This document shows, one piece after another, positions 2,966-27,728 of a DNA stretch of 64,000 nt. Source of the stretch: an uncultured Oribacterium sp. (GTDB lineage: Bacteria; Bacillota; Clostridia; Lachnospirales; Lachnospiraceae); the NCBI GenBank assembly GCA_900770445.1, contig CAAGKO010000009.1:5918-69917 (forward strand), written 5' to 3'. The first letter of the stretch is position 1. Each line of letters begins with the position of its first letter. A model generated the notes under the pieces. That model made no database searches. It saw only the letters and a list, made by a program, of their open reading frames with translations, and had not been told where the DNA came from. The translations under genes were made by a program, and so were the position numbers.

Positions 2966-4273
2966 TTACCCCATCAGTCCTCTCTGGTCGCGGAGGACGG
3001 CGAGGATCGAGAGCGCGAGCATGATGCCGACGGTGAGGACGACGGTGACCATCGCGCCGGCGATGCCGACGTGATCCGCGAGGATGCCGATGATCTGTGG
3101 GACGAGGATGCCGCCGATGGCGCTGATGCCGGTGAGGAGCGAGAGACCAATGGTGGAGCCTTCGATGATCGGGCCGGCGGCCGCGACGGTGGTCGGGTAG
3201 ATGGCACTCATGCCGAGACCGAGCACGGCGATGATGATGGCCGCCATTGTCGCGGTGTGGGTGTTCACGAGGAGCACGATCGCGATGAAATCGATGAGGG
3301 CGCTCACGAGGATGATCCAGAGCTTATCGACCTTCTGGAGAAACTGGGCGGTGCCCATGCGGCCGGCCATCATCATGATCCAGGTGACGGAGACCATCGC
3401 GGTGGCGAGCGCACTCGTCATGACGCCGGTGTCCTTCAGGTAGGTGACGAACCAGCCGTTCACGGTATTCTCGAAGCCGACGTACATGAACATGATGAAG
3501 GTGATGATCAGGAAGCTGCGGTTCGTGAGCAGCGCCTGAAGATTCGGCGCGCCGGCAGGCTGTCCCTGCTCAATGCATCCGGCGTCACTGCCGTCACCAC
3601 CCTGCGCTGCATCGGCAGCCGGGCTCGGCATGGTGCCTTCCGGTTTCGCTGCGCTGCAGCCATCTGCGTGGTGGTCGCCTGCATTGGCCGCAGCAGGCTG
3701 CGGCGCCGCGAGCATCCGGTAGTCCATGGTCCAGTAGTTCAGCGGGAAGATCGCGCCGGAGACGCAGAGGATGTACATGATGATGCGCCACGGGAAGCCG
3801 AGGGCGAGGAGCGCGGCCATGATGAAGGGACTCGCGAAGGCTCCGACGGCGAATGTGGTGTGCAGGATGTTCAGGTACTTCGTCGAGCTGTTCGTCGCGA
3901 CATTCATCGCGAGGTTATTGATGATCGTGACGGTGCCCTTCGTGATGCCGAGGAAGAACACCAGCACGTACATGAAGTAGACCGGCGGATGGATCGTCAG
4001 CAGGAACATGAGGATCGGCGAGAGGCCGGTGATGGCGACCACGACCGCACGATGAGAGAAGTGGCGCTTCGCGAGCGGATAGATGATGGAGGCGCAGAAA
4101 TTGCCGATCGCGAGGATGCTGATCAGGCCGCCCGCGACCGCGTAGTTCAGCTGCTCCTCCTCGATGAGATGCGGCAGGATCGCACCGAAAATCGTGATGA
4201 CCGCACCGCTCAGGATGTAACCGAGGTAGAGGTGGTTCAGTACCCGCCACTTGAGTTCCTTCGTAATTTCCAT
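2966..4273 (-). CDS. MFS transporter (12 TM) with a ~60-aa hydrophilic central loop
   Basis: 435-aa ORF with two six-helix hydrophobic halves, typical of the major facilitator superfamily. Confidence 0.7.
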   Translation of the reverse strand: MEITKELKWRVLNHLYLGYILSGAVITIFGAILPHLIEEEQLNYAVAGGLISILAIGNFCASIIYPLAKRHFSHRAVVVAITGLSPILMFLLTIHPPVYFMYVLVFFLGITKGTVTIINNLAMNVATNSSTKYLNILHTTFAVGAFASPFIMAALLALGFPWRIIMYILCVSGAIFPLNYWTMDYRMLAAPQPAAANAGDHHADGCSAAKPEGTMPSPAADAAQGGDGSDAGCIEQGQPAGAPNLQALLTNRSFLIITFIMFMYVGFENTVNGWFVTYLKDTGVMTSALATAMVSVTWIMMMAGRMGTAQFLQKVDKLWIILVSALIDFIAIVLLVNTHTATMAAIIIAVLGLGMSAIYPTTVAAAGPIIEGSTIGLSLLTGISAIGGILVPQIIGILADHVGIAGAMVTVVLTVGIMLALSILAVLRDQRGLMG

Positions 4274-12301: not shown

Positions 12302-13888
12302 TTATTTTCCGGAATCGCCGTAGTTTGAGAGGACGCGGGCGGATGGGTCGTTGACGGCGCATCCGGGCCAGGTCCTGTTCGGCATCCAGAAATCGGTGAC
12401 CATCTGGGACTGTCCCGGATAGTACTCTTCGAAGATTTCGCGGTAGAGGAGCGACTCCTTCGTGAACGGCGTCGCGTGCGTGTATTTCTGACGCTTCTCC
12501 TCGAATTCCGCGTCGGTATACTGCTTCTCGGCGAACTCCGCGAGGTCATCCTTCATGGAGTGACCGACGGCGTCGGAGAAGGCCGCCTTCTCACGCATGA
12601 GGATGTCCTCCGGCAGGAGATGATCGGCCTCAAACGCGTGACGAAGGAGATACTTACCCTTGTGGTAGTGGTTCAGCTTCTTCTCCGGATCGATGTGCAT
12701 CACGTAATCGACGAAGTCAATGTCTCCGAACGGTACGCGTGCCTCGAGAGAGTTTACGCTGATGCAGCGGTCAGCACGAAGTACATCGTACATGTGCAGC
12801 TCGCGGATACGCTTCTCGGCTTCCTTCTGGAATTCCTCGGCGCTCGGTGCGAAATCGGTGTACTTGTAGCCGAAGAGTTCGTCGGAGATCTCACCGGTCA
12901 GGAGAACACGGACATCGGACTGCTCGTGGATCGCCTTACAGCAGAGATACATGCCGATGGAAGCACGGATGGTGGTGATATCGTAGGTTCCGAGGGTCGC
13001 GATGACCTCCCGAAGGGCGGCCAGGACATCCTCACGGGACATGATGACCTCGTGATGGTTTGCACCGATGTAGTCCGCGACCTCACGTGCATACTTGAGG
13101 TCGATCGCATCGACATCCATACCGATGGCGTAGGTCTCGATCGGCTTCTTCAGAAGCTTCTGAGAAATCGCACAGACGAGCGAGGAGTCGAGACCACCGG
13201 AAAGCAGGAAGCCGACCGGTGCGTCCGCGTCGAGACGCTTCTTCACACCCTCGACGAGAAGATCGTGGATGTTGTGGGCGATCTCCTCGAGATCGTCGTG
13301 CGTGTTGTATTTATGCACCACGGACAGGTCGTGATAGCAGACGAACTGGCCATCCTTATAGTAGTGTCCTGGTGGAAATGGCTTGATTTCATGGCAGAGA
13401 CCCACGAGGTTCTTCGGCTCGGAGGCAAATGCCAGCGTGCCGGCGTCAGTGGTGCCATAGTAGAGGGGACGAATACCGATCGGATCCCGCGCCGCGATGT
13501 AGTCATTGGCCTCTGCGTCGTAAATGATGAGTGCGAACTCCGCGTCGAGCATACGGAACATCTCGGTGCCGAGCTCACGCCAGAGCGGAAGCAGGATCTC
13601 GCAGTCAGAATCGGACTGGAAGGTATAACCTTCCTTCGCGAGCTTCTCACGCAGCGGGCGGAAACCGTAGATCTCGCCGTTGCAGACCACATAGGAACCA
13701 TCCAGCTCGAACGGCTGCATGCCGGCGTCGGTCAGGCCCATGATGGCGAGACGATTGAAGCCGAGGTAGCCGTTACCGGTGTCGACGATACGGGTATCGT
13801 CCGGTCCTCTCGATGTAGTCTTCAGAAGCGCGGCCTTGACGACCTCATACTGTGTGCGCTTGTCACAGAATCCGATAATACTGCACAT
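12302..13888 (-). CDS. asnB: Asparagine synthetase B (glutamine-hydrolysing)
   Basis: N-terminal MCSIIGF Ntn-amidotransferase nucleophile and SGGLDSS PP-loop. RBS GGGAGAG before the ATG at 13888. The longer ORF-track start at 14245 is an upstream extension. Confidence 0.9.
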   Translation of the reverse strand: MCSIIGFCDKRTQYEVVKAALLKTTSRGPDDTRIVDTGNGYLGFNRLAIMGLTDAGMQPFELDGSYVVCNGEIYGFRPLREKLAKEGYTFQSDSDCEILLPLWRELGTEMFRMLDAEFALIIYDAEANDYIAARDPIGIRPLYYGTTDAGTLAFASEPKNLVGLCHEIKPFPPGHYYKDGQFVCYHDLSVVHKYNTHDDLEEIAHNIHDLLVEGVKKRLDADAPVGFLLSGGLDSSLVCAISQKLLKKPIETYAIGMDVDAIDLKYAREVADYIGANHHEVIMSREDVLAALREVIATLGTYDITTIRASIGMYLCCKAIHEQSDVRVLLTGEISDELFGYKYTDFAPSAEEFQKEAEKRIRELHMYDVLRADRCISVNSLEARVPFGDIDFVDYVMHIDPEKKLNHYHKGKYLLRHAFEADHLLPEDILMREKAAFSDAVGHSMKDDLAEFAEKQYTDAEFEEKRQKYTHATPFTKESLLYREIFEEYYPGQSQMVTDFWMPNRTWPGCAVNDPSARVLSNYGDSGK

Positions 13889-14002
13889 ATGGTTACTCTC
13901 CCTAATAAATTTATGTCCGTCGAAAGCTCGCCGCTGTGCCCACAGGGGCTGTGGCGACAGGTGACAGGGCGACTCGGGTCGTGCGCTGCCAGACCGGACA
14001 GA

Positions 14003-14051
14003 ATAAAAAAGACGGCAGAGATGTAGCGATACACGCGACACCTTTGCCGTC
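14003..14051 (-). terminator. Intrinsic terminator inside the asnB 5' leader (stem GACGGCAAAGG...CTCTGCCGTC + U6 on the minus strand)
   Basis: The hairpin followed by TTTTTTATT in the asnB transcript orientation sits ~115 nt upstream of the start codon. This is an attenuator-like arrangement. Confidence 0.5.
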
Positions 14052-14269
14052 CATTGATGCTCCACATTATGAAACGGTGCGAAAAGATTGTCAAGCGTCG
14101 ATTTGGAATAGCAGATATTCGCCATGCGAATCAGTCGCTGGTACTGGCCGAAGACGTTTGAGGCGCTCCTCATTCGCCCACCCCCATGAAAACAGTGGCT
14201 ACCTGCATGCGTTGGACCCACCCCAAGCTCATGAGGAGGCCTCAAACATCTGGCAACTCGGAAGTAAAA

Positions 14270-15020
14270 TAGACAATTTCACAAAAACCGTTTATAGCGT
14301 TCATACGCCATTAGTTTTTATGATTTTTGTTACAAATAAGCGATTTTCTGGCTGAGTGACATTAGATGGTTTTCGCAAAGCGAGGTTTTCAAAGAGCGAT
14401 GCCATTATATTTTCAGGAGTTTGTAATAAACAGGGCATTTTCAAGATGCGTGCCATTAAGTGACTTTTACAAATTCTAAATTTCAGCGATCTGTGCCATT
14501 AGATTATTTCACAGATTAAGAAATATCAGACTCTGTGACATTAAGCATTTGGCTTCGCAGATGGAATACGGGGCGATTTACGAAGAAAAATCTGGACGGA
14601 GATAAAGTCACAGCTTCTGAAATGGGCGGTTTTGCGTCAAAAATCGGGATTTCACTCGGATTTTACTGGGCGAGAGTGACGGGACTTAATGTCATAGACT
14701 CGCCAGGTGAGGAAGCTGTGAAAAAGTATAATGGCATACGATTCGGATAAAGTAAATTTGTGAAAAAACTGATGCCAGTCATCACTCGGTCCCCCTCTTA
14801 CCGTTGGCAGCCTTACCATTTTTCACTGTTTTGATGCAGCTTCACCCGCTCGAACGAAAACAGGCGCCGATTTTTCGTTTGCCTGCACGGGGCGGGGCAG
14901 ATATGTAAGTAGATAAAAGACATATACTGGGGTGGGCAGGCAAACGAGAAGCGGTGCCCCGGTATGGACATCACTTGAGAATTATCCAGGTTACAAAATC
15001 ACCCAGGCTGAACTGTTACT
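14270..15020. repeat. Copy 1 of a ~750-bp structured non-coding repeat. It holds an array of TG(N)CATTA motifs spaced ~42 bp and a GC-rich hairpin GTTTGCCTGC...GCAGGCAAAC.
   Basis: It is ~90% identical to the reverse complement of 29450-30200, and a partial third copy lies at 30405-30590. No intact ORF is conserved between the copies. Confidence 0.85.
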
Positions 15021-15059
15021 AGTGAATACCAGCCATAATATTTTGTAATCAAAGATTTC

Positions 15060-15087
15060 TTGACATTCGCGTTTCCGAAATTATAAT
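15060..15087 (+). promoter_or_regulatory. Sigma-A-type promoter (TTGACA-N16-TATAAT) upstream of dapL, followed by a terminator-like hairpin at 15094-15146
   Basis: TTGACA at 15060-15065 and TATAAT at 15082-15087. AAAAGGGCA...TGCCCTTTTT follows, ~50 nt before the ATG. Confidence 0.55.
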
Positions 15088-15194
15088 GTCATCAAAAGGG
15101 CAAGGGCGTCCTGGTTTCACCAGAGAGTCTATGCCCTTTTTCATTTGAAAAATACATATCGAACATTCAACATTTCATGCTGGGGAGTATAAAA

Positions 15195-16397
15195 ATGTCT
15201 GCAACGATCAATCAAAACTATCTGAAATTAAATGAGAGCTATCTTTTTGCGGAGATCGCGCGTCGTATCCGTGAGTGGCAGTCGGCGCATCCGGAGCTCA
15301 GCAGTCAGCTGATCCGCATGGGCATCGGTGATGTCACCCGCCCACTGCCGAAGACCGTCGTCGATGCGATGGTGAAGGCGGCGCAGGAGATGGGTCAGGC
15401 CGAGAGCTTCCATGGCTACGGTCCGGAGCAGGGCTACGATTTCCTGAAGACAGCGATCCAGTCTTATTATAAGAAGTTCGGCGTTCAGCTCGCCCTCGAC
15501 GAGATCTTCATCTCGGACGGCGCGAAGTCCGATCTCGGCAACATCCTGGATCTCTTCGATGAGAAGAACACCGTGCTCGTCACCGACCCGGTCTATCCGG
15601 TCTACGTCGACACCAACATGATGTCCGGCCGGAAGATCATCTACGCGATGTCTTCTGAAGAAAACGGATTCCTGCCGCTTCCGGCACCAGAGTACCGGGC
15701 CGACATCATCTACCTCTGCAGCCCGAACAACCCGACCGGTGCCGTCTATGACCGCGAGGGCCTCACGAAGTGGGTGCGTTTCGCACAGGAGAACAACGCC
15801 ATCCTCCTTTTCGATGCCGCCTATGAGTGCTTCGTGACCGGCGACCTGCCGCACAGTATCTATGAGATCCCGGGCGCACGTGACGTCGCGATCGAGTTCT
15901 GCAGCTTCTCGAAGAAGGCCGGATTCACGGGTACCCGTTGCGGCTACACCGTCGTACCGGACACCCTGAAGCGCGAGGGCGCGAGCCTCAACAAGATGTG
16001 GCTTCGCCGCCAGACCACGAAGTTCAACGGCGTGAGCTACATCACCCAGCGCGGTGCAGAGGCCGTCTTCACCGAGGCCGGCGAGCGGGAGATCGAGGAG
16101 AACCTGCAGTACTACAGGGACAATGCCTCCATCATCACCGAAACGATGGATCGTCTCCATATCTACTATACCGGTGGCAAGAATTCACCGTACATCTGGC
16201 TCAAGTGCCCTGGCGACATGGACAGCTGGAGCTTCTTCGATAAGCTTCTGAATGAAGCCTACGTGGTCGGCACCCCGGGCGCCGGCTTCGGAAAGAGCGG
16301 CGAGAAGTTCTTCCGCCTCACTGCCTTCTCGACCCACGAGAATACCCGCGAGGCGATGGCCCGCTTCGAGAAGCTCGTCCGGTCGATGAGTTTATAA
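15195..16397 (+). CDS. dapL: LL-diaminopimelate aminotransferase (class I/II PLP aminotransferase, DapL-like)
   Basis: N-terminal NYLKLNESYLFAEIARRI...IRMGIGDVTRPLP is diagnostic of DapL. PLP-lysine region SFSKKAGFTG. RBS GGGGAG. Confidence 0.7.
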   Translation: MSATINQNYLKLNESYLFAEIARRIREWQSAHPELSSQLIRMGIGDVTRPLPKTVVDAMVKAAQEMGQAESFHGYGPEQGYDFLKTAIQSYYKKFGVQLALDEIFISDGAKSDLGNILDLFDEKNTVLVTDPVYPVYVDTNMMSGRKIIYAMSSEENGFLPLPAPEYRADIIYLCSPNNPTGAVYDREGLTKWVRFAQENNAILLFDAAYECFVTGDLPHSIYEIPGARDVAIEFCSFSKKAGFTGTRCGYTVVPDTLKREGASLNKMWLRRQTTKFNGVSYITQRGAEAVFTEAGEREIEENLQYYRDNASIITETMDRLHIYYTGGKNSPYIWLKCPGDMDSWSFFDKLLNEAYVVGTPGAGFGKSGEKFFRLTAFSTHENTREAMARFEKLVRSMSL

Positions 16398-16568
16398 AAA
16401 TTTAATGGGGTCTGACCCCATTAAGTATCGGGGAGTGACGATGGTACGGCGGCCTGCATTGGTAAGCGGGCAGGGGTCAGACCCCATAAACTGCCGAGGA
16501 CACGGACAGCCGATGCATGGCAGCTATAGCAAAAAGTACTGTATTCTGAGGAAAAAGCGAGTTTACAT

Positions 16569-17834
16569 ATGATCGATTTAAGTAATACAATATTTAAAAC
16601 CTATGATGATGTTGAGGTGAAGGATATGAATTCGTATGAAGACATCCTCGAGTTTGTGGAAGAGGAGAATGTCAAGTTTATAAGACTCGCTTTTTTCGAT
16701 GTGTTCGGCGTTCAGAAGAACATCGCGATCATGCCGGATGAGCTGAAGCGTGCGTTCAGTGAGGGCATCAGCATCGATGCGAGCTCGGTATGCGGCTTCG
16801 GTGCGGATGTCCGTTCCGATATCTTCCTTCGTCCGGATCCGACGACCATGTCGATCGTGCCGTGGCGTCCGGTCGATGGCCGTGTGGCACGGATGTTCTG
16901 TGACATCGAGTATCCGGATGGAAAGACCTTCGAGAAGGACAGTCGCTGGATCCTGAAGCAGGCGGTCGAAAAGGCGGCCGATCGTGGCATCCACGTGAAC
17001 TTCGGCACCGAGGTCGAGTTCTACATCTTTAAGCTCGACGATGACGGCAACCGCACGATGATTCCGCAGGACCAGGCGTCCTACATGGACATCGCGCCGG
17101 AGGATCATGGTGAGAACATCCGCCGCGACATCAGCTTCGCCCTCGTGGACATGGGCATCCGCCCGGAGGCAAGTCATCACGAGATGGGCCCGGGACAGAA
17201 CGAGATCGACTTCCGTTATGCCGATCCGCTGATAGCGGCGGACAATGCTTCCACCTTCAAGTGGGTGGTGAAGTCCATCGCGACATCGGATGGCGTGTGG
17301 GCTGATTTTTCGCCGAAGCCACTCGCCGACAAGCCGGGCAACGGCATGCACATCAACATGTCGGTGGAGTCCCGTGACGGACAGGATCACAGCGCCGCCT
17401 TCATGGCGGGCATCCTCGAGCATATCCGTGAGATGACGCTCTTCCTGAATCCGACCCGGGAGAGCTACGAGCGACTCGGTGACATGAAGGCACCGAAGTT
17501 CGTGAGCTGGTCCGAGCAGAACCGCTCACAGCTCATCCGTATCCCGGCGAGCCGCTCGGATCTCAAGCGCTTCGAGCTCCGTTCACCGGATCCGATGGCG
17601 AATCCGTACCTCGCCTTCGCCCTGCTGATCTACGCCGGCCTCGATGGTATCGAGCGCGGACTCGAGCCGATGGCACCGCTGGATGTGAACCTGTTTAAGG
17701 CGGACGCATCCATCACGGATCAGCTGAAGCGCCTGCCGCAGTCACTCGACGAGGCTGCCGCCTACGCACAGAGCTCCGAGTTCATCCGGTCGATCGTGCC
17801 GGCGGAGTACTTCGACGCATATACGATTCTTTAG
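16569..17834 (+). CDS. glnA: Glutamine synthetase, short type I (GSI-alpha-like, 421 aa)
   Basis: GS ATP-binding signature KPLADKPGNGMHINMS and a GS catalytic-domain layout. Confidence 0.75.
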   Translation: MIDLSNTIFKTYDDVEVKDMNSYEDILEFVEEENVKFIRLAFFDVFGVQKNIAIMPDELKRAFSEGISIDASSVCGFGADVRSDIFLRPDPTTMSIVPWRPVDGRVARMFCDIEYPDGKTFEKDSRWILKQAVEKAADRGIHVNFGTEVEFYIFKLDDDGNRTMIPQDQASYMDIAPEDHGENIRRDISFALVDMGIRPEASHHEMGPGQNEIDFRYADPLIAADNASTFKWVVKSIATSDGVWADFSPKPLADKPGNGMHINMSVESRDGQDHSAAFMAGILEHIREMTLFLNPTRESYERLGDMKAPKFVSWSEQNRSQLIRIPASRSDLKRFELRSPDPMANPYLAFALLIYAGLDGIERGLEPMAPLDVNLFKADASITDQLKRLPQSLDEAAAYAQSSEFIRSIVPAEYFDAYTIL

Positions 17835-17854
17835 TAACATTTAGGGAGATTCAC

Positions 17855-18457
17855 ATGGAAAGAACGGAGCAAAGGAGCAGCGTACTGATCGCGGCTCAAT
17901 CTGAAAAGATCGCCGTCCAGATCAAGGGCATACTGCCCGCTGGCTTCGGTCGCGTGACTTTCCAGCCGTCCATGGCGCGGGTGAAGCAGACGCTCACCGA
18001 GGAACGGGCGGATCTCCTGATCATCTACACACCGCTGTCGGATGATTCCGGCGTTCAGTCGATCCTCGATCTGAGTGTCAAATATCCGGCGATGAGCATC
18101 CTTCTCATCGTGTCGAAGGAAGCGTATCAACAGGTGCTTTACCGGGCCGGCGACACCGGCATCACGGTCCTGGCGAGACCGATCAGCACCGGCACCTTCG
18201 TTTCGGCGATCCAGATGCTCGGCGCGATGAGCCGTAAGGTTCAGCGTCTGCTCGAGGAGAATGCGAAGCTGCAGCGGAAGCTCGAGGATGAGCGTTACGT
18301 CAGCCGGGCAAAAGCCCTTCTCATCGAGAAGCAGGGCATGACGGAGGGCGAGGCACACAAGTACCTCGAGCGCCAGGCCATGAACGGCAGCGTCACCCGC
18401 CGCGAGGTCGCCCTGAAGATCATCCGCGAGAGCGGACGAATCATTGTAGGTACATGA
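17855..18457 (+). CDS. ANTAR-domain antiterminator with a pseudo-receiver domain (NitR/AmiR-like)
   Basis: C-terminal ANTAR helix region (VSRAKALLIEKQGMTEGEAHKYLERQAMNGSVTRREVALKII). The N-terminal REC-like fold carries Tyr (LLIIYTPL) where the phospho-acceptor Asp is expected. RBS GGGAG. Confidence 0.8.
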   Translation: MERTEQRSSVLIAAQSEKIAVQIKGILPAGFGRVTFQPSMARVKQTLTEERADLLIIYTPLSDDSGVQSILDLSVKYPAMSILLIVSKEAYQQVLYRAGDTGITVLARPISTGTFVSAIQMLGAMSRKVQRLLEENAKLQRKLEDERYVSRAKALLIEKQGMTEGEAHKYLERQAMNGSVTRREVALKIIRESGRIIVGT

Positions 18458-18489
18458 GAGGGCCGTGCGAACAATTAAATCTGTAAATG

Positions 18490-18548
18490 AAGAGGACAAT
18501 GGGGTCCGGGAAGTTTTTTTCCTGTGCCTTGTTGTCCTCTTTTTTATA
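18490..18548 (+). terminator. Leader terminator between the ANTAR regulator and glnN (AAGAGGACAA...TTGTCCTCTT + T6); candidate ANTAR antitermination target
   Basis: Strong intrinsic terminator in the 200-nt gap. glnN has its own RBS (AGGAGGAG) downstream. Confidence 0.7.
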
Positions 18549-18660
18549 CCTACCGCATTTCCATGTAAATCGGTCATGATCGTATCAATCACCGACAGAT
18601 GGACATCGAAATGTGGTGGGGATCACAAACCACCATATATCTTTTTAGGAGGAGAAAATT

Positions 18661-20766
18661 ATGAGTACTACATCGGTTCCTGAGCTTTACGGAAGCCTTG
18701 TATTTAACGACAAGGTCATGCGCGAGCGACTGCCGAAGGACATCTACAAGGCAGTGCACAAGACCATCCAGAACGGATCCCATCTGGAGCTGGACGTGGC
18801 GAATACCGTCGCAGCGACGATGAAGGAGTGGGCACTGGAGCATGGCGCGACCCACTTCACACACTGGTTCCAGCCGATGACCGGCCTGACCGCAGAAAAG
18901 CATGACAGCTTCATTTCCCCGAGCGAAAACGGAAGCGTCATCATGGAGTTCTCCGGCAAGGAGCTCGTCAAGGGCGAGCCGGATGCCTCCTCCTTCCCGA
19001 GTGGCGGCCTCCGTGCCACCTTCGAGGCCCGCGGCTATACCGCATGGGACCCGAGCTCACCTGCCTTCATCAAGGACGGCACCCTGTACATCCCGACCGC
19101 ATTCTGCTCGTACTCCGGCGAATCCCTCGATAAGAAGACCCCGCTGCTCCGCTCCATGGAGACCCTGAGCGAGTCTGCGACGAAGCTGCTCCACATCCTC
19201 GGCAAGGAAAAGGTCACCCGCGTCGACACCACCGTCGGCTCCGAGCAGGAGTACTTCCTGATCGATAAGGACCTCTACACCGAGCGTGAGGACCTCATGC
19301 TCACCGGCCGTACCCTGATCGGCGCTCCGGCACCGAAGGGGCAGGAGATGGAGGATCACTACTTCGGCGTACTGAAGCCAAAGGTATCCGAGTTCATGCA
19401 CGATCTCGACCAGGAGCTCTGGAAGCTCGGCGTTCCGGCGAAGACCAAGCACAACGAAGTGGCACCGTCACAGCACGAGCTGGCACCTGTCTTTGAGACC
19501 GCCAATATCGCCGTCGACCACAATCAGCTTACCATGGAGATGATGAAGAAGGTCGCCGACAAGCATAATTATGCATGCCTCCTGCACGAGAAGCCTTTCG
19601 AGGGCATCAACGGCTCCGGTAAGCACAACAACTGGTCCATGATCACCTCCGAGGGTGAGAACCTGCTCGATCCGGGCAAGACGCCGGGGAAGAACGTTCA
19701 GTTCCTGCTCTTCCTCATGGGTATCGTCAGTGCAGTGGATGAGTATGCAGATCTGATGCGTGTATCCGTCGCAACCGCGGGCAATGATCACCGCCTGGGC
19801 GCAAATGAAGCACCTCCAGCCATCGTTTCCATCTATGTCGGCGATGAGCTCGAGAAGGTCCTCGAGTCCATCGAAAACGGCGAGGATTTCACCTCCTCGG
19901 ATTCGAAGCAGCTTGAGACCGGTGCCCACGTTCTGCCACACTTCGTACAGGACAACACCGACCGTAACCGTACCTCACCGTTTGCCTTCACCGGCAACAA
20001 GTTCGAGTTCCGTATGCCGGGCTCCTCACTTTCCGTCGCAGACCCGAACATCGTACTGAACACCGCCGTCGCGGAGGCACTCGACCAGATCTGCGCGAAG
20101 CTCGAGGACGTCGATCCGAAGGATCTCGAGGAAGAGGCGATGAAGCTCGTCAAGAAGCTCCTCAAGAAGCACAGAAGAATCATCTTCAACGGTAACGGTT
20201 ACACCGATGCGTGGGTAGCCGAGGCAGAGAAGAGAGGCCTCTACAACCTCAAGTCCCTCCCGGAGGCGATGCCGCAGATCAAGGCAAAGAAGAACAAGGA
20301 GCTCTTCGAAAAGCACCACGTCTTCACCGAGACCGAGATCGACTCCCGCTATGAGATCTACCTCGAGAACTACTCGAAGACCATCCGCATCGAGGCACTC
20401 ACCATGCTCGAGATGGTCAAGAAGGACTTCACCGACGGCTTGATGGCATATGAAACCGCCCTCACCGACACCGCGATCCAGAAGAAGCAGGTACTCGCCG
20501 GCGCGAAGTGCACACTCGAAACCAGCATCCTCACGAAGCTCGACGCCGCATCCGAAGCGATCGGCCTCGCCGTCGAAAAGCTCGAGAAGGACCTCGCCGA
20601 GACCCAGACGATCACTGACAGCCTCGCCCTCGCCACCGCGTACCACGACACCATCCTCGCCGACATGGATGCCCTCCGTGCCCCGGTCGACGCAGCCGAA
20701 GAGATGATCCCGGAGACCTACCTCCCGTACCCGACCTACTCGAAGCTCCTGTTCTCACTTAGATAA
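18661..20766 (+). CDS. glnN: Glutamine synthetase type III
   Basis: ~700-aa GS-III architecture (N-terminal MSTTSVPELYGSLVFND..., core HEKPFEGINGSGKHNNWS). Confidence 0.9.
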   Translation: MSTTSVPELYGSLVFNDKVMRERLPKDIYKAVHKTIQNGSHLELDVANTVAATMKEWALEHGATHFTHWFQPMTGLTAEKHDSFISPSENGSVIMEFSGKELVKGEPDASSFPSGGLRATFEARGYTAWDPSSPAFIKDGTLYIPTAFCSYSGESLDKKTPLLRSMETLSESATKLLHILGKEKVTRVDTTVGSEQEYFLIDKDLYTEREDLMLTGRTLIGAPAPKGQEMEDHYFGVLKPKVSEFMHDLDQELWKLGVPAKTKHNEVAPSQHELAPVFETANIAVDHNQLTMEMMKKVADKHNYACLLHEKPFEGINGSGKHNNWSMITSEGENLLDPGKTPGKNVQFLLFLMGIVSAVDEYADLMRVSVATAGNDHRLGANEAPPAIVSIYVGDELEKVLESIENGEDFTSSDSKQLETGAHVLPHFVQDNTDRNRTSPFAFTGNKFEFRMPGSSLSVADPNIVLNTAVAEALDQICAKLEDVDPKDLEEEAMKLVKKLLKKHRRIIFNGNGYTDAWVAEAEKRGLYNLKSLPEAMPQIKAKKNKELFEKHHVFTETEIDSRYEIYLENYSKTIRIEALTMLEMVKKDFTDGLMAYETALTDTAIQKKQVLAGAKCTLETSILTKLDAASEAIGLAVEKLEKDLAETQTITDSLALATAYHDTILADMDALRAPVDAAEEMIPETYLPYPTYSKLLFSLR

Positions 20767-20772
20767 ATGACA

Positions 20773-20803
20773 GGATCTGACCCCACTTCGTGGCGTCAGA
20801 TCC
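20773..20803 (+). terminator. Hairpin GGATCTGACCCCACTTCGTGGCGTCAGATCC after glnN
   Basis: 9-bp perfect stem immediately after the stop codon; a variant of the recurring GGGGTCAGACCCC family. Confidence 0.5.
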
Positions 20804-20816
20804 TTCTGAATAAAAC

Positions 20817-21150
20817 CTTACGGCAGAAGAAATCGGCGCAGGGACCACGAATTTACGGTAGAAGAAATCGGCGCATGGAGGTCGCCACGAACGTACGGCA
20901 GAAGAAATCGGAACAGGGAGGGGACATAATTGCGCATTCAAAGAACAGGTTCCAGTGTAATGTACGTCATGAACACACAGAACGTGTTCTGTGATGGGCA
21001 TGACGAACATTGCACTGGGTTCTGTACTTTGAACTAAGTGAGTTGTCCCCTCCCTGTCCGATTTCTTCGTACTATACATTAGCGGCGCGACCTCCATGAC
21101 CGATTTCTTCGTACCATGAATCCCCTCCCTGTCCGATTTCTTCGTACCAT
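20817..21150. repeat. ~335-bp near-perfect palindrome: three direct ~32-bp units (TACGGCAGAAGAAATCGG...GGAGG), a palindromic core, then three inverted units. It ends 2 nt before the gltB RBS.
   Basis: L2 (20852-20885) is the exact complement of R2 (21083-21115). L3 (20893-20925) is the exact complement of R3 (21045-21075), and R1 (21118-21150) repeats that unit. The core 20926-21044 is itself palindromic. Confidence 0.85.
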
Positions 21151-21166
21151 ATTTAGTGGAGTATAT

Positions 21167-24100
21167 ATGAATACTTATCAAAATCAGAGCACCTTTACTG
21201 TGCCAGAGCAGTACAGGGGACACAACACACTCTGGCGTCCCCAGTCCATCGAGGACATGAATGAGCTCACCCAGGATGCCTGCGGTATCGGCAGCGTCGT
21301 GAACATCGACGGCCACCAGGATACGCGCGTCCTGGACGATGCACTGCATATCGTGGAAAAGCTCGAGCACCGCGCCGGTAAGGACGCGAGCGGCAAGGTC
21401 GGCGATGGCGTCGGCATCCTCCTGCAGATCAGCCACAGCTTCTTTAAGAAGGCGGCACTCACGCAGGGGATCCAGCTTCGTGACGAGCGTGACTACGGTG
21501 TCGGCATGTTTTTCTTCCCGGAGGACCAGCTGAAGCGGACCTTCGCGAAGCGTATGTTCGAGGTCATCACCGAGAAGAACGGACTCCGTTTCCTCGGCTG
21601 GCGTGAGGTGCCGGTGCATCCGGAGATCCTCGGTCAGGTGGCGGTCGACTGCATGCCGCATATCCTGCAGTGCTTCATCGAGCGCCCGGAGGACGCAGAG
21701 AGAGGCATCGATTTTGATCGGCGTTTATATGTACTTCGCCGCGAGTTCGAGCAGTCCTCAGAGGATACCTATATCTGTTCTCTGAGCTCCCGGACCATCG
21801 TATATAAGGGCATGTTCCTGGTAAAGCAGCTCCGTGCCTTCTATGATGACCTGCGTGACCCGGATTATCGGACCGCCATCGCCATCGTGCACTCCCGTTT
21901 CTCGACGAATACCACGCCGAGCTGGGATCGTGCGCATCCATACCGCATGATCGCCCATAACGGTGAGATCAATACCATCCGTGGAAACATTGACCGTATG
22001 CTCGCCCGTGAGGAGACCATGTCGAGCCCGCTGCTCGAGAAGGACGTGGAGAAGATCTTCCCGGTCGTGGAGCGCAGTGGATCGGATTCCGCGATGCTCG
22101 ACAACACCCTCGAGTTCCTCTACATGAACGGCATCGATCTGCCGCTCGCGATGATGATGACCATCCCGGAGCCGTGGAAGCACAACCGCTTCATGGACCA
22201 GAATAAGAAGGATTTCTATCACTACTACGCAACCATGATGGAGCCGTGGGATGGACCGGCGGCGATCCTCTTCTCCGATGGTGATGTGGTCGGCGCGACC
22301 CTCGACCGTAACGGCCTTCGTCCGTCCAGATACTACATCACCGACGACAACCGACTGATCCTGTCCTCCGAGGTCGGCGTCCTCGACATCGACCCGAAGC
22401 ACATCGTGCAGAAGTCCCGACTCCAGCCGGGCCGTATGCTGCTCGTCGACACGAAGGCGCAGCGCATCATCTCGGACGAGGAGTGCAAGGAAGCCTATGC
22501 GGCACGTGAGCCGTACGGTGAGTGGCTCGACCGGAACCTCCTCCACATCGAGGATCTGAAGATCCCGAACCGAAAGATCCCGACGCACACGCAGGAGATG
22601 CGTGACCGCCTCTATAAGGTCTTCGGCTACAGCTACGAGGATGTGAAGTCCGTGATCCTCCCGATGGCCCAGAACGGCATCGAGCAGACCGCGTCGATGG
22701 GCCACGATGTCCCGCTCGCGGTGCTCAGCAAGCAGCATCAGCTCCTGTTTAACTACTTCAAGCAGCTCTTCGCCCAGGTCACCAACCCGCCGATCGACTC
22801 CCTCCGCGAGAAGATCGTCACGGATACGACCGTGTACATCGGCTCCGATGGTAATCTGCTGCAGGATCAGGCCGACAACTGCCGCGTGCTCGAGGTGGAG
22901 AATCCGATCCTCACGGGCGTCGAGCTCATGAAGATCAAGGACCTCAACCAGCCGGGCTTCCGGACCGAGGTGATCTCGCTTCTCTACTATAAGAACACAT
23001 CTCTCGAGAAGGCCCTGGAGCAGCTCAATATTTCGGTCGATCGTGCATACCAGCGCGGCTACAACATCATCATCCTGAGCGATCGTGGGGTCGACGAGAA
23101 CCATGTGCCGATTCCGTCCCTGCTGGCGGTGAGCTCCGTCGAGCAGCATCTCGTCCAGACGAAGAAGCGGACCGCCGTGTCCCTGATCCTCGAGTCTGCT
23201 GAACCACGTGATGTACATCAGTTTGCAACCATCCTCGGCTTCGGTGCCCGTGCGATCAACCCGTACCTCGCCCATGAGTGCATCGCCGAGATGATCGACA
23301 TCGGTATCCTCGATAAGGATTATCATACCGCCATCGAGGACTATAACAAGGCGGTTCTGAACGGCATCGTAAAGATCGCGGCGAAGATGGGTATTTCGAC
23401 GATTCAGTCCTACCAGTCGGCGAAAATCTTTGAGGCCATCGGTCTCAGCAAGGAGCTGGTGGAAAAGTACTTCACCGGTACGGTGTCGAGGGTCGGCGGC
23501 ATTGGCATCCAGGACATCGCCGAGGGCGTAACCTGGCGGCATGACCATGCGTTTGATCCGATGGGATTAAGCCTTGATACCGCGCTCGATTCCGTCGGCT
23601 TCCATCAGCTTCGTTCGGGTCGGGGCACCGAGGATCATCTCTATGATCCGGAGACGATCATTACCCTTCAGCGCTCGGTTCGGAGTGATGAGAGCGATTA
23701 TAAGAAATTTAAGGAGTACACGGCGCGCATCGATGACGAGCGTCGGCCGCATACACTGCGTGGACTTCTGAAGTTTGCGCCGAAGAATCAGCCGGTGCCG
23801 ATCGAGGAGGTCGAGCCGGTATCGTCCATCGTGAAGCGTTTCAAGACCGGTGCGATGTCCTACGGTTCGATTTCGCAGGAGGCGCACGAGGCGATGGCCA
23901 TCGCGATGAACCGCCTCGGCGGCAAGTCCAACACCGGTGAGGGTGGTGAGCACCCGGATCGTTTCGGTACCGAGCGGAATTCCGCCATCAAACAGGTTGC
24001 GTCCGGTCGTTTCGGCGTGACCAGTGCCTATCTCAACTCCGCCGTCGAGATCCAGATCAAGATGGCGCAGGGCGCGAAGCCGGGCGAGGGCGGCCATCTG

Positions 24101-25786
24101 CCGGGCAAGAAGGTCTATCCGTGGATCGCGAAGACCCGTTTTTCGACCCCGGGTGTGTCCCTCATTTCCCCGCCGCCTCACCACGATATCTACAGTATCG
24201 AGGACCTGGCGCAGCTGATCTATGATCTGAAGAACGCGAACCGCCGTGCCGCGATCGCCGTCAAGCTCGTGTCCGAAAACGGCGTCGGCACCATCGCAAG
24301 TGGTGTTGCCAAGGCTGGCGCCCAGGTCATCCTCGTGTCCGGCTACGATGGAGGTACCGGTGCGGCACCGATGACCTCGATCCACCATGCGGGTCTTCCG
24401 TGGGAGCTCGGCATCACCGAGGCGCACCATGCGCTGATCGAGAACGGGCTTCGTAACCGCGTCAAGCTCGAGACCGATGGTAAACTGATGACCGGCCGCG
24501 ATGTCGTGATCGCTGCACTGCTCGGTGCGGAGGAGTATGGCTTCGCGACGACCGCGCTCGTCTGCCTCGGCTGCATGATGATGCGTGTCTGCAACAAGGA
24601 TACCTGTCCGTTCGGCGTCGCTACCCAGAACGACGTTCTCCGCAAGCGCTTCACGGGCAAGCCGGAGTACGTCATGAACTTCATGCGCTTCATCGCACAG
24701 GAGATGCGCGAGTACATGGCGGAGCTCGGTTTCCGTACCGTGGACGAGATGATCGGCCGTACCGACTGTCTCACGGTCAATGCTTCGGCCGCGCAGGTCA
24801 CCACGCGCTCGGCAGAGGTGGATCTCTCTGCGATTCTGGATCCGCGCTATGCGACCCTTCCGGAAGAGGAGCGTCACTTTGACCCGAAGCATGTCTATGA
24901 TTTCCATCTCGAGAAGACCCTCGATGAGTCAGTGCTTCTCCGGAAGTTTGCCCCGGCCATCGCGAGCGGTCAGCACCACGAGGAGAGGGTCGAGGTTTCG
25001 AGCACGAACCGTACCTTCGGTACCATCCTCGGCTCCGAGATCACCGATCACTACGGCATGACACCGGAGGGCGATACCCTGCCGGATGATACCTTCGTGG
25101 TCGAGGCGTACGGCGGTGGCGGCCAGTCCTTCGGTGCCTTTATCCCGAAGGGCCTGACGATCCGTCTCCATGGCGATGCCAATGATGGCTTCGGTAAGGG
25201 CCTGAGCGGCGGTAAGCTCGTCGTGGTGCCACCGGAGGGAAGTCCGTTCCGCGCCAGTGAGAACATCATCGTCGGCAACGTCGCCCTCTATGGTGCGACG
25301 GCCGGCAAGTGCTATGTGAACGGTGTCGCCGGTGAGCGCTTCTGCGTTCGTAATTCCGGTGCGACGGCGGTCGCCGAGGGCTGTGGCGATCATGGCCTCG
25401 AGTACATGACCGGCGGACGTGCCGTCATCCTCGGACCGACCGGCAAGAACTTCGCCGCCGGTATGTCCGGTGGTATCGCCTACGTCCTCGATATGGATCA
25501 CTCGCTCTATCTCAAGCTCAACAAGGACATGGTTTCCCTGCTGGAGGTCACCGAGAAGTATGACATCCAGGAGCTGAAGGAGATCCTCACGGATTATGTG
25601 AAGGAGACGAAGTCGGAGCTCGGCACAGAGATCCTCCGGAACTTCGATATGTTCCTCCCGAGCTTCAAGAAAATCGTGCCGAACGACTACCAGAAGGTAC
25701 TGACCGCGGTCAGCCACTTCGAAGAGCAGGGCATCTCCCATGAAAATGCGGAGCTGGAAGCTTTTAAGTCTTTGTTTGCAGTGTAG
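21167..25786 (+). CDS. gltB: Glutamate synthase large subunit
   Basis: N-terminal ...DACGIGSV Ntn-amidotransferase start. FMN/Fe-S central domain and C-terminal GXGXG-type domain. RBS GGAG before the ATG at 21167. The ORF-track start at 21116 overlaps the palindrome. Confidence 0.9.
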   Translation: MNTYQNQSTFTVPEQYRGHNTLWRPQSIEDMNELTQDACGIGSVVNIDGHQDTRVLDDALHIVEKLEHRAGKDASGKVGDGVGILLQISHSFFKKAALTQGIQLRDERDYGVGMFFFPEDQLKRTFAKRMFEVITEKNGLRFLGWREVPVHPEILGQVAVDCMPHILQCFIERPEDAERGIDFDRRLYVLRREFEQSSEDTYICSLSSRTIVYKGMFLVKQLRAFYDDLRDPDYRTAIAIVHSRFSTNTTPSWDRAHPYRMIAHNGEINTIRGNIDRMLAREETMSSPLLEKDVEKIFPVVERSGSDSAMLDNTLEFLYMNGIDLPLAMMMTIPEPWKHNRFMDQNKKDFYHYYATMMEPWDGPAAILFSDGDVVGATLDRNGLRPSRYYITDDNRLILSSEVGVLDIDPKHIVQKSRLQPGRMLLVDTKAQRIISDEECKEAYAAREPYGEWLDRNLLHIEDLKIPNRKIPTHTQEMRDRLYKVFGYSYEDVKSVILPMAQNGIEQTASMGHDVPLAVLSKQHQLLFNYFKQLFAQVTNPPIDSLREKIVTDTTVYIGSDGNLLQDQADNCRVLEVENPILTGVELMKIKDLNQPGFRTEVISLLYYKNTSLEKALEQLNISVDRAYQRGYNIIILSDRGVDENHVPIPSLLAVSSVEQHLVQTKKRTAVSLILESAEPRDVHQFATILGFGARAINPYLAHECIAEMIDIGILDKDYHTAIEDYNKAVLNGIVKIAAKMGISTIQSYQSAKIFEAIGLSKELVEKYFTGTVSRVGGIGIQDIAEGVTWRHDHAFDPMGLSLDTALDSVGFHQLRSGRGTEDHLYDPETIITLQRSVRSDESDYKKFKEYTARIDDERRPHTLRGLLKFAPKNQPVPIEEVEPVSSIVKRFKTGAMSYGSISQEAHEAMAIAMNRLGGKSNTGEGGEHPDRFGTERNSAIKQVASGRFGVTSAYLNSAVEIQIKMAQGAKPGEGGHLPGKKVYPWIAKTRFSTPGVSLISPPPHHDIYSIEDLAQLIYDLKNANRRAAIAVKLVSENGVGTIASGVAKAGAQVILVSGYDGGTGAAPMTSIHHAGLPWELGITEAHHALIENGLRNRVKLETDGKLMTGRDVVIAALLGAEEYGFATTALVCLGCMMMRVCNKDTCPFGVATQNDVLRKRFTGKPEYVMNFMRFIAQEMREYMAELGFRTVDEMIGRTDCLTVNASAAQVTTRSAEVDLSAILDPRYATLPEEERHFDPKHVYDFHLEKTLDESVLLRKFAPAIASGQHHEERVEVSSTNRTFGTILGSEITDHYGMTPEGDTLPDDTFVVEAYGGGGQSFGAFIPKGLTIRLHGDANDGFGKGLSGGKLVVVPPEGSPFRASENIIVGNVALYGATAGKCYVNGVAGERFCVRNSGATAVAEGCGDHGLEYMTGGRAVILGPTGKNFAAGMSGGIAYVLDMDHSLYLKLNKDMVSLLEVTEKYDIQELKEILTDYVKETKSELGTEILRNFDMFLPSFKKIVPNDYQKVLTAVSHFEEQGISHENAELEAFKSLFAV

Positions 25787-25822
25787 GAGTTTGCAATATC
25801 TATAGAGATAGAGGGAGTATTC

Positions 25823-27352
25823 ATGGGTAAGGTAACAGGATTTCTCGACTATGCGAGAGAAGATAATAAAGACGTTCCGGTAGAGGAGCGTATCAAAAAC
25901 TTTAAAGAATTTCATATCCCCCTCACGGAGGAGGAGCGTCGGAAGCAGGGCGCGCGCTGCATGAACTGCGGTGTCCCGTTCTGCCAGTCCGGCATGAAGC
26001 TGGCGGGCATGTTCACGGGCTGTCCGCTCCACAATCTCTGCCCGGAGTGGAACGATGAGGTCTACAACGGCCACGTCGCCCATGCACTGAGCCGTCTTTT
26101 GAAGACGAACAACTTCCCGGAGTTCACCGGCCGTGTCTGCCCGGCGCTCTGCGAGAAGGCCTGTGTCGAGGGGCTCGATGACGCGCCGGTGACGACACAC
26201 GACAACGAGCTCTACATCATCGAGAAGGCCTTCCGGGAGGGCTACATGCAGCCGCGGATCCCGGAGGTCCGCTCCGGTAAGCGCGTCGCCGTCATCGGTG
26301 CCGGTCCGGCCGGCCTCGCAGTGGCGGATCAGCTGAACCATCGTGGCCACAGCGTCACCGTCTTCGAGCGCGCGGATGAGATCGGCGGTCTCCTCATGTA
26401 CGGTATACCGAACATGAAGCTCGACAAGTCCGTCATCCGTCGTCGCCGCGCCCTCATGGAAGCGGAAGGCGTCGTCTTCCGTACCGGCGTGGACGTGGGC
26501 CGCGAGACATTGACCGCCGGAAAGGGCAGCGCGGTCACCGCGGCATCGATCCTCCGGGACTACGACGCGGTCGTCCTGGCCTGTGGCGCGAAGCAGGCGC
26601 GCGGACTCAATGTGCCGTTCATCGAGCAGGCGCACGGCATCCACTACGCGGTCGACTACCTGACGAGCCAGACGAAGGCCCTCCACGAGCAGGGCGAGCA
26701 TGCCTTCGGCGTCATCAACGCGAAGGGGAAGCATGTCGTCATCGTCGGTGGCGGTGACACCGGAAACGACTGCTGCGGTACCGCGATCCGCCAGGGTGCG
26801 AAGTCGGTGACCCAGATCGAGATGATGCCGGAGCCGCCGGTCGAGCGTGCAGCGTCGAATCCGTGGCCGGAGTGGCCGAAGGTCCTGAAGGTCGATTACG
26901 GCCAGCAGGAGGCCATCCGCGTCTTCGGACATGACCCGCGCGTTTACGAGACGACGATCAAGGCCATCGAGACGAAGAAGGACGGCAGCATCAAGGCCGT
27001 CATCACCTCGAAGGTGAAGTTCGAGAATCGGCAGATGGTACTCGTCGAGGGCACGGAGCAGAAGCTGCCGTGTGACCTCCTCATCATCGCCGCCGGCTTC
27101 ACCGGCTGCGAAAGCTACGTCGCCGACGCCTTCGGTGTCGCACTCACCGAGCGCCATGTCGTAAAGACGGAGGCGGAGCACTACCACACGGAAAGCGCAG
27201 AGAAGCCGATGGCTGCTGCAAATGCCGCGAAGATCTTCACCGCAGGCGACATGCACCGCGGACAGTCCCTCGTCGTCTGGGCCATCGCCGAAGGCCGCGC
27301 CTGTGCAAGCGAAGTCGACGCGTACCTGATGGGTTACAGCTGCCTCGCGTAA
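25823..27352 (+). CDS. gltD: Glutamate synthase small subunit (NADPH-dependent oxidoreductase)
   Basis: N-terminal Fe-S cysteine cluster (CMNCGVPFC...C) and two Rossmann GXGXXG motifs (VIGAGPAG, VIVGGGDTGNDC). Confidence 0.85.
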   Translation: MGKVTGFLDYAREDNKDVPVEERIKNFKEFHIPLTEEERRKQGARCMNCGVPFCQSGMKLAGMFTGCPLHNLCPEWNDEVYNGHVAHALSRLLKTNNFPEFTGRVCPALCEKACVEGLDDAPVTTHDNELYIIEKAFREGYMQPRIPEVRSGKRVAVIGAGPAGLAVADQLNHRGHSVTVFERADEIGGLLMYGIPNMKLDKSVIRRRRALMEAEGVVFRTGVDVGRETLTAGKGSAVTAASILRDYDAVVLACGAKQARGLNVPFIEQAHGIHYAVDYLTSQTKALHEQGEHAFGVINAKGKHVVIVGGGDTGNDCCGTAIRQGAKSVTQIEMMPEPPVERAASNPWPEWPKVLKVDYGQQEAIRVFGHDPRVYETTIKAIETKKDGSIKAVITSKVKFENRQMVLVEGTEQKLPCDLLIIAAGFTGCESYVADAFGVALTERHVVKTEAEHYHTESAEKPMAAANAAKIFTAGDMHRGQSLVVWAIAEGRACASEVDAYLMGYSCLA

Positions 27353-27359
27353 GAGTGGA

Positions 27360-27640
27360 CTGGACACGTGAAGGCTTATATGAAAATTGTGTCTATGGAT
27401 TTCTTCGTAAAAATCAGAAATCGAGGAGCAAAATAGACGCAGATACATCTATTATGAAATAGTGTCTATAAAATCGACGATTGACATCAAAAATTGAAGT
27501 CAGATCTCGAGTTTTATAGACACTATTTTTATATGAGCTTCTTCGTATATATTTTCTATCCAGAATCTGGCTCCGAAGCTCAAATTTCGTAGACACGATT
27601 TTTAAAACGACGCATCTATGTATAGTTTCTTTGAAAACCT
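27360..27640. repeat. Intergenic block of AAATAGTGTCTATA / TATAGACACTATTT hairpin sub-repeats, related to the interior of the 586-970 element
   Basis: Shared 13-15-mers (ATAGACACGATTT, TTATAGACAC) appear in both orientations. Confidence 0.5.
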
Positions 27641-27728
27641 GCTTTTGGACAGGAGATGATTGGTGCTGCCGCGCGAGCATCCGGCTTGATTTCCAGCAAA
27701 CCATCGCGCGCGGCCCGGAAATATCTGC

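Follow-up and report, generated by a model that had tools for sequence, protein, structure and literature searches.

What is an array of short motifs, regularly spaced and partly mirrored, doing in non-coding chromosomal DNA? The question arises in a stretch of 64,000 nucleotides (here called the window) from an uncultured Oribacterium sp. (assembly GCA_900770445.1, contig CAAGKO010000009.1, positions 5,918 to 69,917). A first-pass annotation, made from the letters alone, had noted motifs of the form TG(N)CATTA about every 42 bp within a 750-bp repeat, and proposed either plasmid or phage iterons or a cooperative binding array for a DNA-binding protein. The best explanation of our observations is that the array forms the conserved core ("A", ~500 bp) of a mobile mosaic element without genes, which is dispersed in Oribacterium-like Lachnospiraceae. 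With a probability of roughly 0.55 we interpret this core as a multi-site docking region for a protein on double-stranded DNA, carried by a mosaic element that resembles a miniature inverted-repeat transposable element (MITE), and not as an iteron origin.

The array itself is real. The motif TGNCATTA occurs 16 times in the window against an expectation of 4.2 +/- 2.0, a count reached in none of 100 shuffles (0/100), and 13 of the 16 occurrences fall within the two repeat copies. Copy 1 displays six direct Box-1 sites on the plus strand, starting at 14306 (CGCCATTA), 14357, 14400, 14451, 14494 and 14536, with start-to-start distances of 51/43/51/43/42 bp. The regularity reported in the annotation therefore stands, but its uniform spacing of ~42 bp has to be replaced by an alternating pattern of 51, 43 and 42 bp; likewise, six of its "at least 7" direct sites are clear, while the seventh, at the left edge, is only a partial and degenerate unit. 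Both inverted sites of copy 1 were correctly recognised, TAATGTCA at 14687, which lies 151 bp past the last direct site, and TAATGGCA another 42 bp further at 14729; degenerate inverted sites are present at 14603 (TAAAGTCA) and 14770 (TGATGCCA). On the reverse strand, copy 2 (30166 down to 29737) is 83-88% identical to copy 1 and has the same set of sites at the same spacing, as the reported mirroring implied. The parts of the two cores are the following.

14277-14784, plus strand: array core A, copy 1; every family member has a homologous block.
14306-14543, plus strand: six direct units (U0-U5), each with Box 1, then Box 2 and Box 3.
14600-14650, plus strand: central block conserved across copies, with TAAAGTCA (14603-14610), GCTTCTGAAA and TTTTGCGTCAAAAA (14630-14643).
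14687-14777, minus strand: inverted units by motif position, TAATGTCA (14687-14694), TAATGGCA (14729-14736) and the degenerate TGATGCCA (14770-14777).
29695-30195, minus strand: array core A, copy 2; homologous to the copy 1 core.
30159-30166, 30108-30115, 30065-30072, 30014-30021, 29971-29978 and 29929-29936, minus strand: direct Box-1 sites of copy 2, by motif match.
29779-29786 and 29737-29744, in a core on the minus strand: inverted sites of copy 2, by motif match.

Each unit is composed of Box 1, (C/T)G(A/C)CATTA or TGNCATTA, Box 2 (TTTTCRCARA) and Box 3 (GATTTCA). Box 2 starts 5-13 bp past Box 1 and takes the forms TTTTCGCAAAG, CTTTTACAAA, TTTCACAGA and TTTGTAACAAAC, and Box 3 is located just ahead of the next Box 1. 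The units alternate between 51 and 43 bp, the additional 8 bp being placed between Box 1 and Box 2, so that the array can be regarded as built of 94-bp super-units which are ~68% alike. The sixth unit is followed by a variable region of ~60 bp and then by the conserved central block (14603-14643: TAAAGTCAC, GCTTCTGAAA, TTTTGCGTCAAAAA). In the inverted units I3 (14729) and I4 (14770) an inverted Box 2 (TGTGAAAAA) stands directly ahead of Box 1; for I2 (14687) no such box was recognised. The direct sites at offsets 259, 217, 174 and 123 have their mirror images in inverted Box-1 sites, whose offsets are 410, 452, 493 and, in part of the copies, 546; both sets have one common dyad centre at offset ~338 (window ~14615). 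The site positions in the core thus form a quasi-palindrome whose left arm is longer than the right. The unit is an asymmetric, bipartite or tripartite recognition unit of protein size, held in fixed register on two inverted arms.

This geometry is not peculiar to the window. A genome scan over one genome per species, which used a loose three-motif pattern with gaps of 30-46 nt and left U0, U1 and the inverted sites unconstrained, returned 116 matches; the pattern was too loose and most of these are chance matches or unrelated arrays. The 13 true homologues all belong to Oribacterium metagenome-assembled genomes (MAGs) or isolates or to a Lachnospiraceae MAG, and the MAG CAKQED01 has copies on at least six contigs or loci. 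Strain Sow4_G1_1 (L085) is an example of an Oribacterium isolate with the element. The distribution of the family would by itself assign the window to an Oribacterium-like member of the Lachnospiraceae. The spacing 51/43/51/43/42, followed by ~151 and 42, was found in 13/13 of these genome copies, and one of them (L046) keeps it although its spacers are beyond BLAST alignment. A metagenome scan with a pattern of five CATTA motifs at fixed spacing recovered 65 contigs from gut assemblies, of which ~62 are genuine family members; one assembly alone has 16 arrays on 14 contigs. Several features that this pattern did not impose are nevertheless kept: the TG before CATTA, Box 2, Box 3, U0, the central TTTGCGTCAAAAA and the inverted offsets 410/452/493/546.

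Among the unrelated arrays are those of Bacteroidales bacterium UBA5515 (L031, L032, L045, L052, L055), in which 5-6 copies of the palindrome ATAATGCCATTAT are set 22 bp apart, an arrangement repeated at five or more intergenic loci of the one genome. They represent a separate iteron-like family, picked up only through the common TGCCATTA.

Among 42 copies that are pairwise at most 90% identical, the information content is high at Boxes 1, 2 and 3 and low in the spacers. Members mostly have six or seven direct units, rarely eight or nine, and two to five inverted units, up to four of which are good. Subfamilies whose spacers have diverged beyond detection by BLAST retain all boxes, the order of units, the spacing to the base pair and the mirrored inverted sites. 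Motif, spacing and orientation pattern are thus kept over many independent copies, contrary to the first refuting condition of the annotation, a spacing not shared by other genomic copies. Eight orthologous groups, recognised by shared flanks in different samples, display substitutions at 6/94 box positions versus 59/191 other positions (Fisher p = 1e-5), where high-information positions counted as boxes and the forced CATTA positions were excluded. This roughly five-fold avoidance of the boxes is suggestive of selection acting on them after insertion. In some strains the core is truncated by a secondary event: in L193 (1168-2618) and L201 an insertion sequence (IS) of the IS3 family, with an rve transposase, is inserted in the array core at the window-equivalent position 14598/14599.

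The core travels in a larger unit. What had been described as a 750-bp repeat is a repeat indeed, but consists of two copies of a transposon-like element with terminal inverted repeats, empty sites and target duplications. In the subfamily of the window the core is flanked by two long hairpin modules, which are inverted relatives of each other and end in terminal inverted repeats (GTAACAGTTCAGCC, GTAACAGTTCAGCCGGGGTGA). The GTAACAGTTCAGCCGGGGTGA repeats bound copy 2 on both sides, as they do many other copies; copy 1 has an intact repeat on the right side alone. The carrier unit of 0.9-1.1 kb transposes as a whole, with 8-bp target duplications, and the complete elements measured 876-1365 bp.

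14114-15023, plus strand: mobile element copy 1, 910 bp, comprising left hairpin module, array core and right hairpin/terminal inverted repeat module; the empty sites L192 and L197 join 14113 to 15024.
14106-14113 and 15024-15031, no strand: target-site duplication of copy 1, left GAATAGCA and right GAATACCA; single in the empty L192 and L197.
14140-14262, plus strand: left long hairpin "H1", CGTTTG-stem-CCCACCCC...CCCACCCC-stem-CAAAC, with a degenerate outer terminal repeat; inverted relative of the right module.
14785-15019, plus strand: right hairpin module "B", identified by module comparison; it includes a long hairpin (14871-14951), and its terminal inverted repeat, ...TCACCCAGGCTGAACTGTTAC, ends at 15019.
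29453-30566, minus strand: mobile element copy 2, 1114 bp, with the termini GTAACCGTTCAGCCGGGGTGA at 29453 and ATAACAGTTCAGCCGGAGTGA (reverse strand) ending at 30566; empty sites in L185 and L186.
29445-29452 and 30567-30574, no strand: target-site duplication of copy 2, AAATTTCC, an 8/8 match; single in the empty sites.
30499-30521, minus strand: predicted inward-facing, terminator-like hairpin GAGACGCTTATGCCGAGCGTCTC with a T-run, in the left hairpin module of copy 2.

Insertion is evident at both loci. Among contigs encoding an identical GroES, L185 and L186 are empty at the locus of copy 2, with abutting flanks and the 8-mer present once; among contigs with the same ANTAR protein, L192 and L197 are empty at the locus of copy 1, and L194-L196 and L198-L200 are filled. 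The flanks of the relatives with empty sites are mostly 85-99% identical. The two copies in the window are therefore independent insertions. In L198 (1-1460) the empty and the filled version of the asnB-aminotransferase intergenic region stand in tandem; either the region was duplicated locally or the assembly is a chimera of two strains. The target duplication matches at 8/8 positions in copy 2 and at 7/8 in copy 1 (GAATAGCA/GAATACCA). Among the other 12 complete copies it was seen in L054 (7/8) and L136 (6/8, probably the ortholog of L054), and not in the remaining 10, for which age or recombination between copies is the probable cause.

The termini, which begin with GTAAC, point to a known group of transposons. 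They are identical at 11/14 positions to the repeat GTAACTGCTCAGCA of ISDge4, the single published element compared, and the duplication has the same size of 8 bp. ISDge4 is an ISBst12-group element of the IS66 family and produces 8-bp duplications (PMC12898284). No IS with the same termini and a cognate transposase was present within the fetched loci.

Core and carrier can be told apart. Diverged cores occur without the terminal-repeat frame, which implies that the core is older than, and independent of, its present vehicle. Conversely, L054 (7168-8000) has the same hairpin and terminal-repeat frame around another cargo of ~65-bp tandem modules with an array of CATGCC/GGCATG motifs, which suggests a wider class of array-bearing mosaic elements. 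In L183 the target site of copy 2 is occupied by a palindromic MITE of 255 bp that has a GTAACAGTTCAG-type terminus and no array. The simplest history would be that the core nested into the loop of a palindromic MITE and subsequently spread with it. The MatE-groES target AAATTTCC is an insertion hot spot: it is unoccupied in L185 and L186, whereas the window has the 1114-bp element there, L183 the 255-bp MITE (3433-3690) and L184 a 456-bp insert (3326-3781), the latter unrelated and dense in ATTGGATA/TATCCAAT motifs.

Several functions of the core were considered and rejected. The array is non-coding, as had been claimed: the two open reading frames (ORFs) over it score -0.31 and -0.27 in codon usage against +0.24 to +0.47 for real genes, and neither has a match in Pfam. 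A search of Rfam, which had been proposed as a check, yielded no family at gathering thresholds in the whole window (0 matches), and chance-level matches only at E<=10 for 13850-15250. The alternative that the region is a known non-coding RNA (ncRNA) or an IS remnant leaves the array untouched, while an IS-related origin does apply to its carrier, though not to the core. A scan of the ungapped alignment detected no conserved helix of at least 5 bp in the array. For 34 diverse copies (509 columns) RNAalifold returned -14 kcal/mol with a covariation term of -1.08, and the pairs are restricted to the complementarity of Box 1 with inverted Box 1 and of Box 2 with inverted Box 2. The z-score of the minimum free energy is nearly equal on both strands (-3.7 and -3.8), which is the signature of inverted repeats at the level of the DNA. 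RNA pairing of direct with inverted units was likewise rejected, as the variable base N covaries weakly in U4/I3 (CG 18, AU 6, mismatches 9) and not at all in U5/I2.

Intrinsic curvature finds no basis, since the A/T tracts lack a periodicity of 10-11 bp and have only components of 23 and 8.5 bp. A CodY operator array can be dismissed because the CodY box is not enriched. Also rejected was a role as leader or riboswitch for the nitrogen operon, since the position of the element is outside the promoter at 15060-15087 and relatives possessing that operon lack the element. An invertible promoter switch was considered because the hairpin modules seemed to be swapped between sides in L014, L054 and L085; these loci are not orthologous, and "H1" is merely an inverted variant of the right hairpin module. 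ToxI-like arrays of type III toxin-antitoxin systems are near-identical tandem repeats of 36-45 nt followed by a toxin ORF; here the units are diverged and no ORF follows. An origin from a phage, plasmid or virus was rejected as well: blastn gave 0 matches in 72,556 plasmid and 50,697 phage records, and the fixed-spacing scan found no arrays in IMG/VR, where seven matches to the 16-nt terminal repeat are chance matches without extension.

Cooperative loading of a protein on the DNA, the second proposal of the annotation, remains the best reading of the sequence. The units would be double-stranded binding sites for one sequence-specific protein, whose copies would load 42-51 bp (about four helical turns) apart and on roughly one face of the helix, the cumulative offsets remaining within ~50 degrees. 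The two inverted arms would then let the loaded protein pair them across the central block of ~150 bp. The architecture of Box 1 and Box 2 in I3 and I4, repeated on the opposite strand, counts for action at the level of DNA rather than RNA. Multiple sites on oppositely oriented arms are a hallmark of the ends of Mu, Tn7 and inverted repeat-direct repeat (IR-DR) elements, and for this reason a transposase or recombinase encoded in trans, which mobilises the core now or did so in the past, would be the likeliest client. A host protein that co-opted the sites ranks second and constitutes the main alternative.

Several observations weigh against a protein-docking core. The array is not needed by a transposase acting at the outer ends, because the array-less 255-bp MITE has the same type of terminus, and the ISBst12-like outer ends appear sufficient for transposition; for the core alone neither termini nor a target duplication could be demonstrated. 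No binding protein was identified and no gene recurs as a neighbour at the ~80 copies, which adjoin ordinary housekeeping genes. CATTA and spacing of the metagenome copies are partly conserved by construction, because the search pattern had fixed spacing, and in two further arrays of the fetched loci some of the spacings are off by 1-2 bp. Conversion between gene-less copies, importing differences mainly at family-variable positions (gene conversion), could mimic the depletion of substitutions in the boxes, and purifying selection in place is unexpected in a purely selfish element. The motifs may also function in single-stranded RNA.

The rival explanations differ in how much of this pattern they account for. 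It is possible, albeit rather doubtful, that the host has domesticated the platform and that a nucleoid-associated or regulatory protein binds the array, in the manner of IHF and gyrase on BIME and RIB elements; the element would then insulate neighbouring genes from each other, or form a topological barrier or a regulatory hub between them. The avoidance of the boxes by substitutions in orthologous copies would fit such a role, as would the inward-facing terminator-like hairpins in the flanking modules, the position of both window copies exactly between divergent promoters (asnB/aminotransferase for copy 1, MatE/groES for copy 2) and the Box-1-like palindrome TGACATT-N17-AATGTCA of the operon promoter at 15060-15087. 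However, close relatives have no insertion at either locus of the window, so that no copy is essential in place, and the neighbours display neither a common function nor a rule of orientation; the CodY box, the only regulator motif scanned for, is not enriched, and the motif of another known regulator was not recognised. If the array were instead the neutral passenger or filler of a recently expanded MITE, its conservation would reflect young copies and gene conversion. Outer repeats and 8-bp duplications indeed account for mobility without the array, L054 has another cargo in the same frame, and gene conversion could imitate a constraint on the boxes. We nevertheless consider this unlikely, given that subfamilies undetectable to each other by BLAST keep boxes, order, spacing and mirrored sites, and that diverged cores exist outside the terminal-repeat frame.

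Transcription of the core as an ncRNA, e.g. as a sponge offering single-stranded UGNCAUUA/UUUUCGCAAA motifs to an RNA-binding protein, has its models in CsrB, RsmZ and CrcZ, which are RNA sponges with repeated motifs. A length of ~500 nt, six to nine repeated motifs, several copies per genome and the folding z-score of -3.7 are compatible with it. It is quite improbable all the same, with no Rfam match, no helices or covariation beyond the complementarity between boxes, an equal z-score on the opposite strand, no conserved promoter or terminator flanking the core and a unit architecture repeated on the other strand, for which an RNA motif has no need. The sopC site of the F plasmid consists of 12 direct repeats and is bound by SopB, a protein of the ParB family. 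A centromere-like partition site of this type, bound by a ParB-like protein, would agree with a direct-repeat array in which units of 42-51 bp come near the 43-bp sopC repeat (PMC3177203). The non-palindromic Box 1, unlike the sopC repeat with its 16-bp inverted repeat, makes it very improbable, as do the lack of adjacent parA/parB genes and of a plasmid match, the many chromosomal loci per genome and the presence/absence polymorphism. Hardly credible, and the least probable of all, are replication-origin iterons of an integrated plasmid or phage, the other proposal of the annotation, even if direct repeats with inverted copies recall iterons together with a rep operator. Iterons are near-identical repeats of 17-22 bp at one plasmid or phage locus with an adjacent Rep gene, whereas the present units are long (42-51 bp) and mutually dissimilar and are found at numerous chromosomal loci in each genome. 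None of the ~80 copies has a rep gene nearby, blastn gave no similarity to plasmids or phages, no array was found in IMG/VR, and the GC skew does not switch within the window; moreover, several origins per chromosome would be hazardous.

We tentatively raise the less probable proposition that the docking core represents a new class of mobile cis-acting module, namely a dyad-symmetric docking platform with a geometry fixed to the base pair. Purifying selection would maintain it at each insertion because a protein (a dedicated recombinase or transposase of a new type, or a host chromosome organiser) assembles on it, and it would be carried along by one transposon frame or another. The same genomes may contain sibling modules built on other motifs, as exemplified by the ATTGGATA array of L184 and the CATGCC array of L054.

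Among known systems, the whole element is a MITE-like mosaic repeat, nearest in build to the pneumococcal BOX element and to MITEs derived from IS66/ISBst12. With the latter it has in common the lack of genes and coding capacity, terminal inverted repeats, several copies, presence/absence polymorphism among strains, and 8-bp target duplications with empty sites. Unlike them it is large (0.9-1.1 kb, where MITEs are usually under ~600 bp), and its interior is not a deleted IS but a separately conserved core that also exists without these ends. BOX (boxA-boxB(n)-boxC), the NIME and Correia elements of Neisseria and the enterobacterial BIMEs are likewise modular, intergenic, MITE-like and present in several copies. 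In BOX, two partly complementary end modules surround tandem units of ~45 bp (PMC3049150). Units of the boxB type are near-identical, and their number changes from one locus or strain to the next, whereas here the units differ from each other, have position-specific sequence and are nearly fixed in number and spacing; in addition, the inverted arm mirrors the direct arm, and there is no sequence similarity to BOX-type repeats.

By analogy, the asymmetric sites, direct on one arm and inverted on the other so that the arms can be paired, would recall the L1-L3/R1-R3 sites of Mu, the TnsB sites of Tn7, the IR-DR ends of Tc1 and the subterminal repeats of CACTA elements. The present elements differ in having no transposase gene and no demonstrable termini or target duplication at the edges of the core, and the mirrored geometry of 42-51 bp is not that of Mu or Tn7. 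The likeness to sopC and iterons lies in the direct-repeat array and the period near 43 bp; the sites are non-palindromic, par and rep genes are missing, and the elements are chromosomal, multicopy and mobile, without a plasmid homologue. What sets the element apart from BOX and the IS66/ISBst12-derived MITEs, its nearest analogues, is its size and a deeply conserved, position-specific, dyad-symmetric array with spacing exact to the base pair and independent of the transposon frame. In the literature on repeats of Oribacterium and Lachnospiraceae we found no description of it.

If the docking core is as proposed, uncultured gut Lachnospiraceae would hold mobile, gene-less elements whose payload is a precise array of protein-binding sites instead of a gene. 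Such elements could place ready-made binding platforms between promoters, and they could create inverted repeats that flip chromosome segments, e.g. around the 14-kb glutamine/glutamate assimilation operon of the window; they would also be usable as strain-level markers in metagenomes. The exact and conserved geometry provides an experimental handle toward the binding protein. The case also warns that iteron-like arrays in chromosomal intergenic DNA need not mean replication origins.

The genes next to the family copies encode, among others, FtsY/Ffh, Rho, a DinB-like protein, MatE, a histidine kinase and ABC ATPases, and have no function in common. A linked partner gene (transposase, Rep or Par) was rejected, as all-vs-all clustering of 241 flanking ORFs recovers only orthologous synteny. 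The orientation of the elements relative to their neighbours is unbiased in 42 distinct groups (17:9 on the left, 10:15 on the right). In the window, the two element copies are inverted repeats of ~750-900 bp that bracket 14.4 kb (15020-29452) with an aminotransferase, glutamine synthetases of types GS-I and GS-III, an ANTAR protein, glutamate synthase (GOGAT) and MatE, and recombination between them could invert this whole nitrogen-assimilation block. The palindrome in front of the aminotransferase/GS/ANTAR operon encloses a perfect TTGACA-16-TATAAT promoter (15060-15087). A terminator-like leader hairpin (15095-15147) follows this promoter and could be a target of the ANTAR regulator of the operon.

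At the other end of the block, MatE with ~80 bp of upstream sequence (27729-29452) is inverted relative to gltD/groES in several related strains (L182, L187-L190 versus L183-L186). Remnants resembling the terminal repeat flank MatE in L183 and L185, and one is located at 29308-29321 of the window. The annotated MatE ORF of 547 aa is probably too long, as relatives have 482-502 aa. A CIRCE-like inverted repeat, TTAGCACTC-N9-GTTGCTAA (30620-30662), overlaps the groES promoter. Elsewhere in the window, three to four tandem repeats of 57 bp (19 codons) at 48510-48729 lie within a long ORF and are probably a coding repeat, and a direct repeat of 104 nt, 82% identical, is found at 43123-43226 and, 4 kb apart, at 47107-47210.

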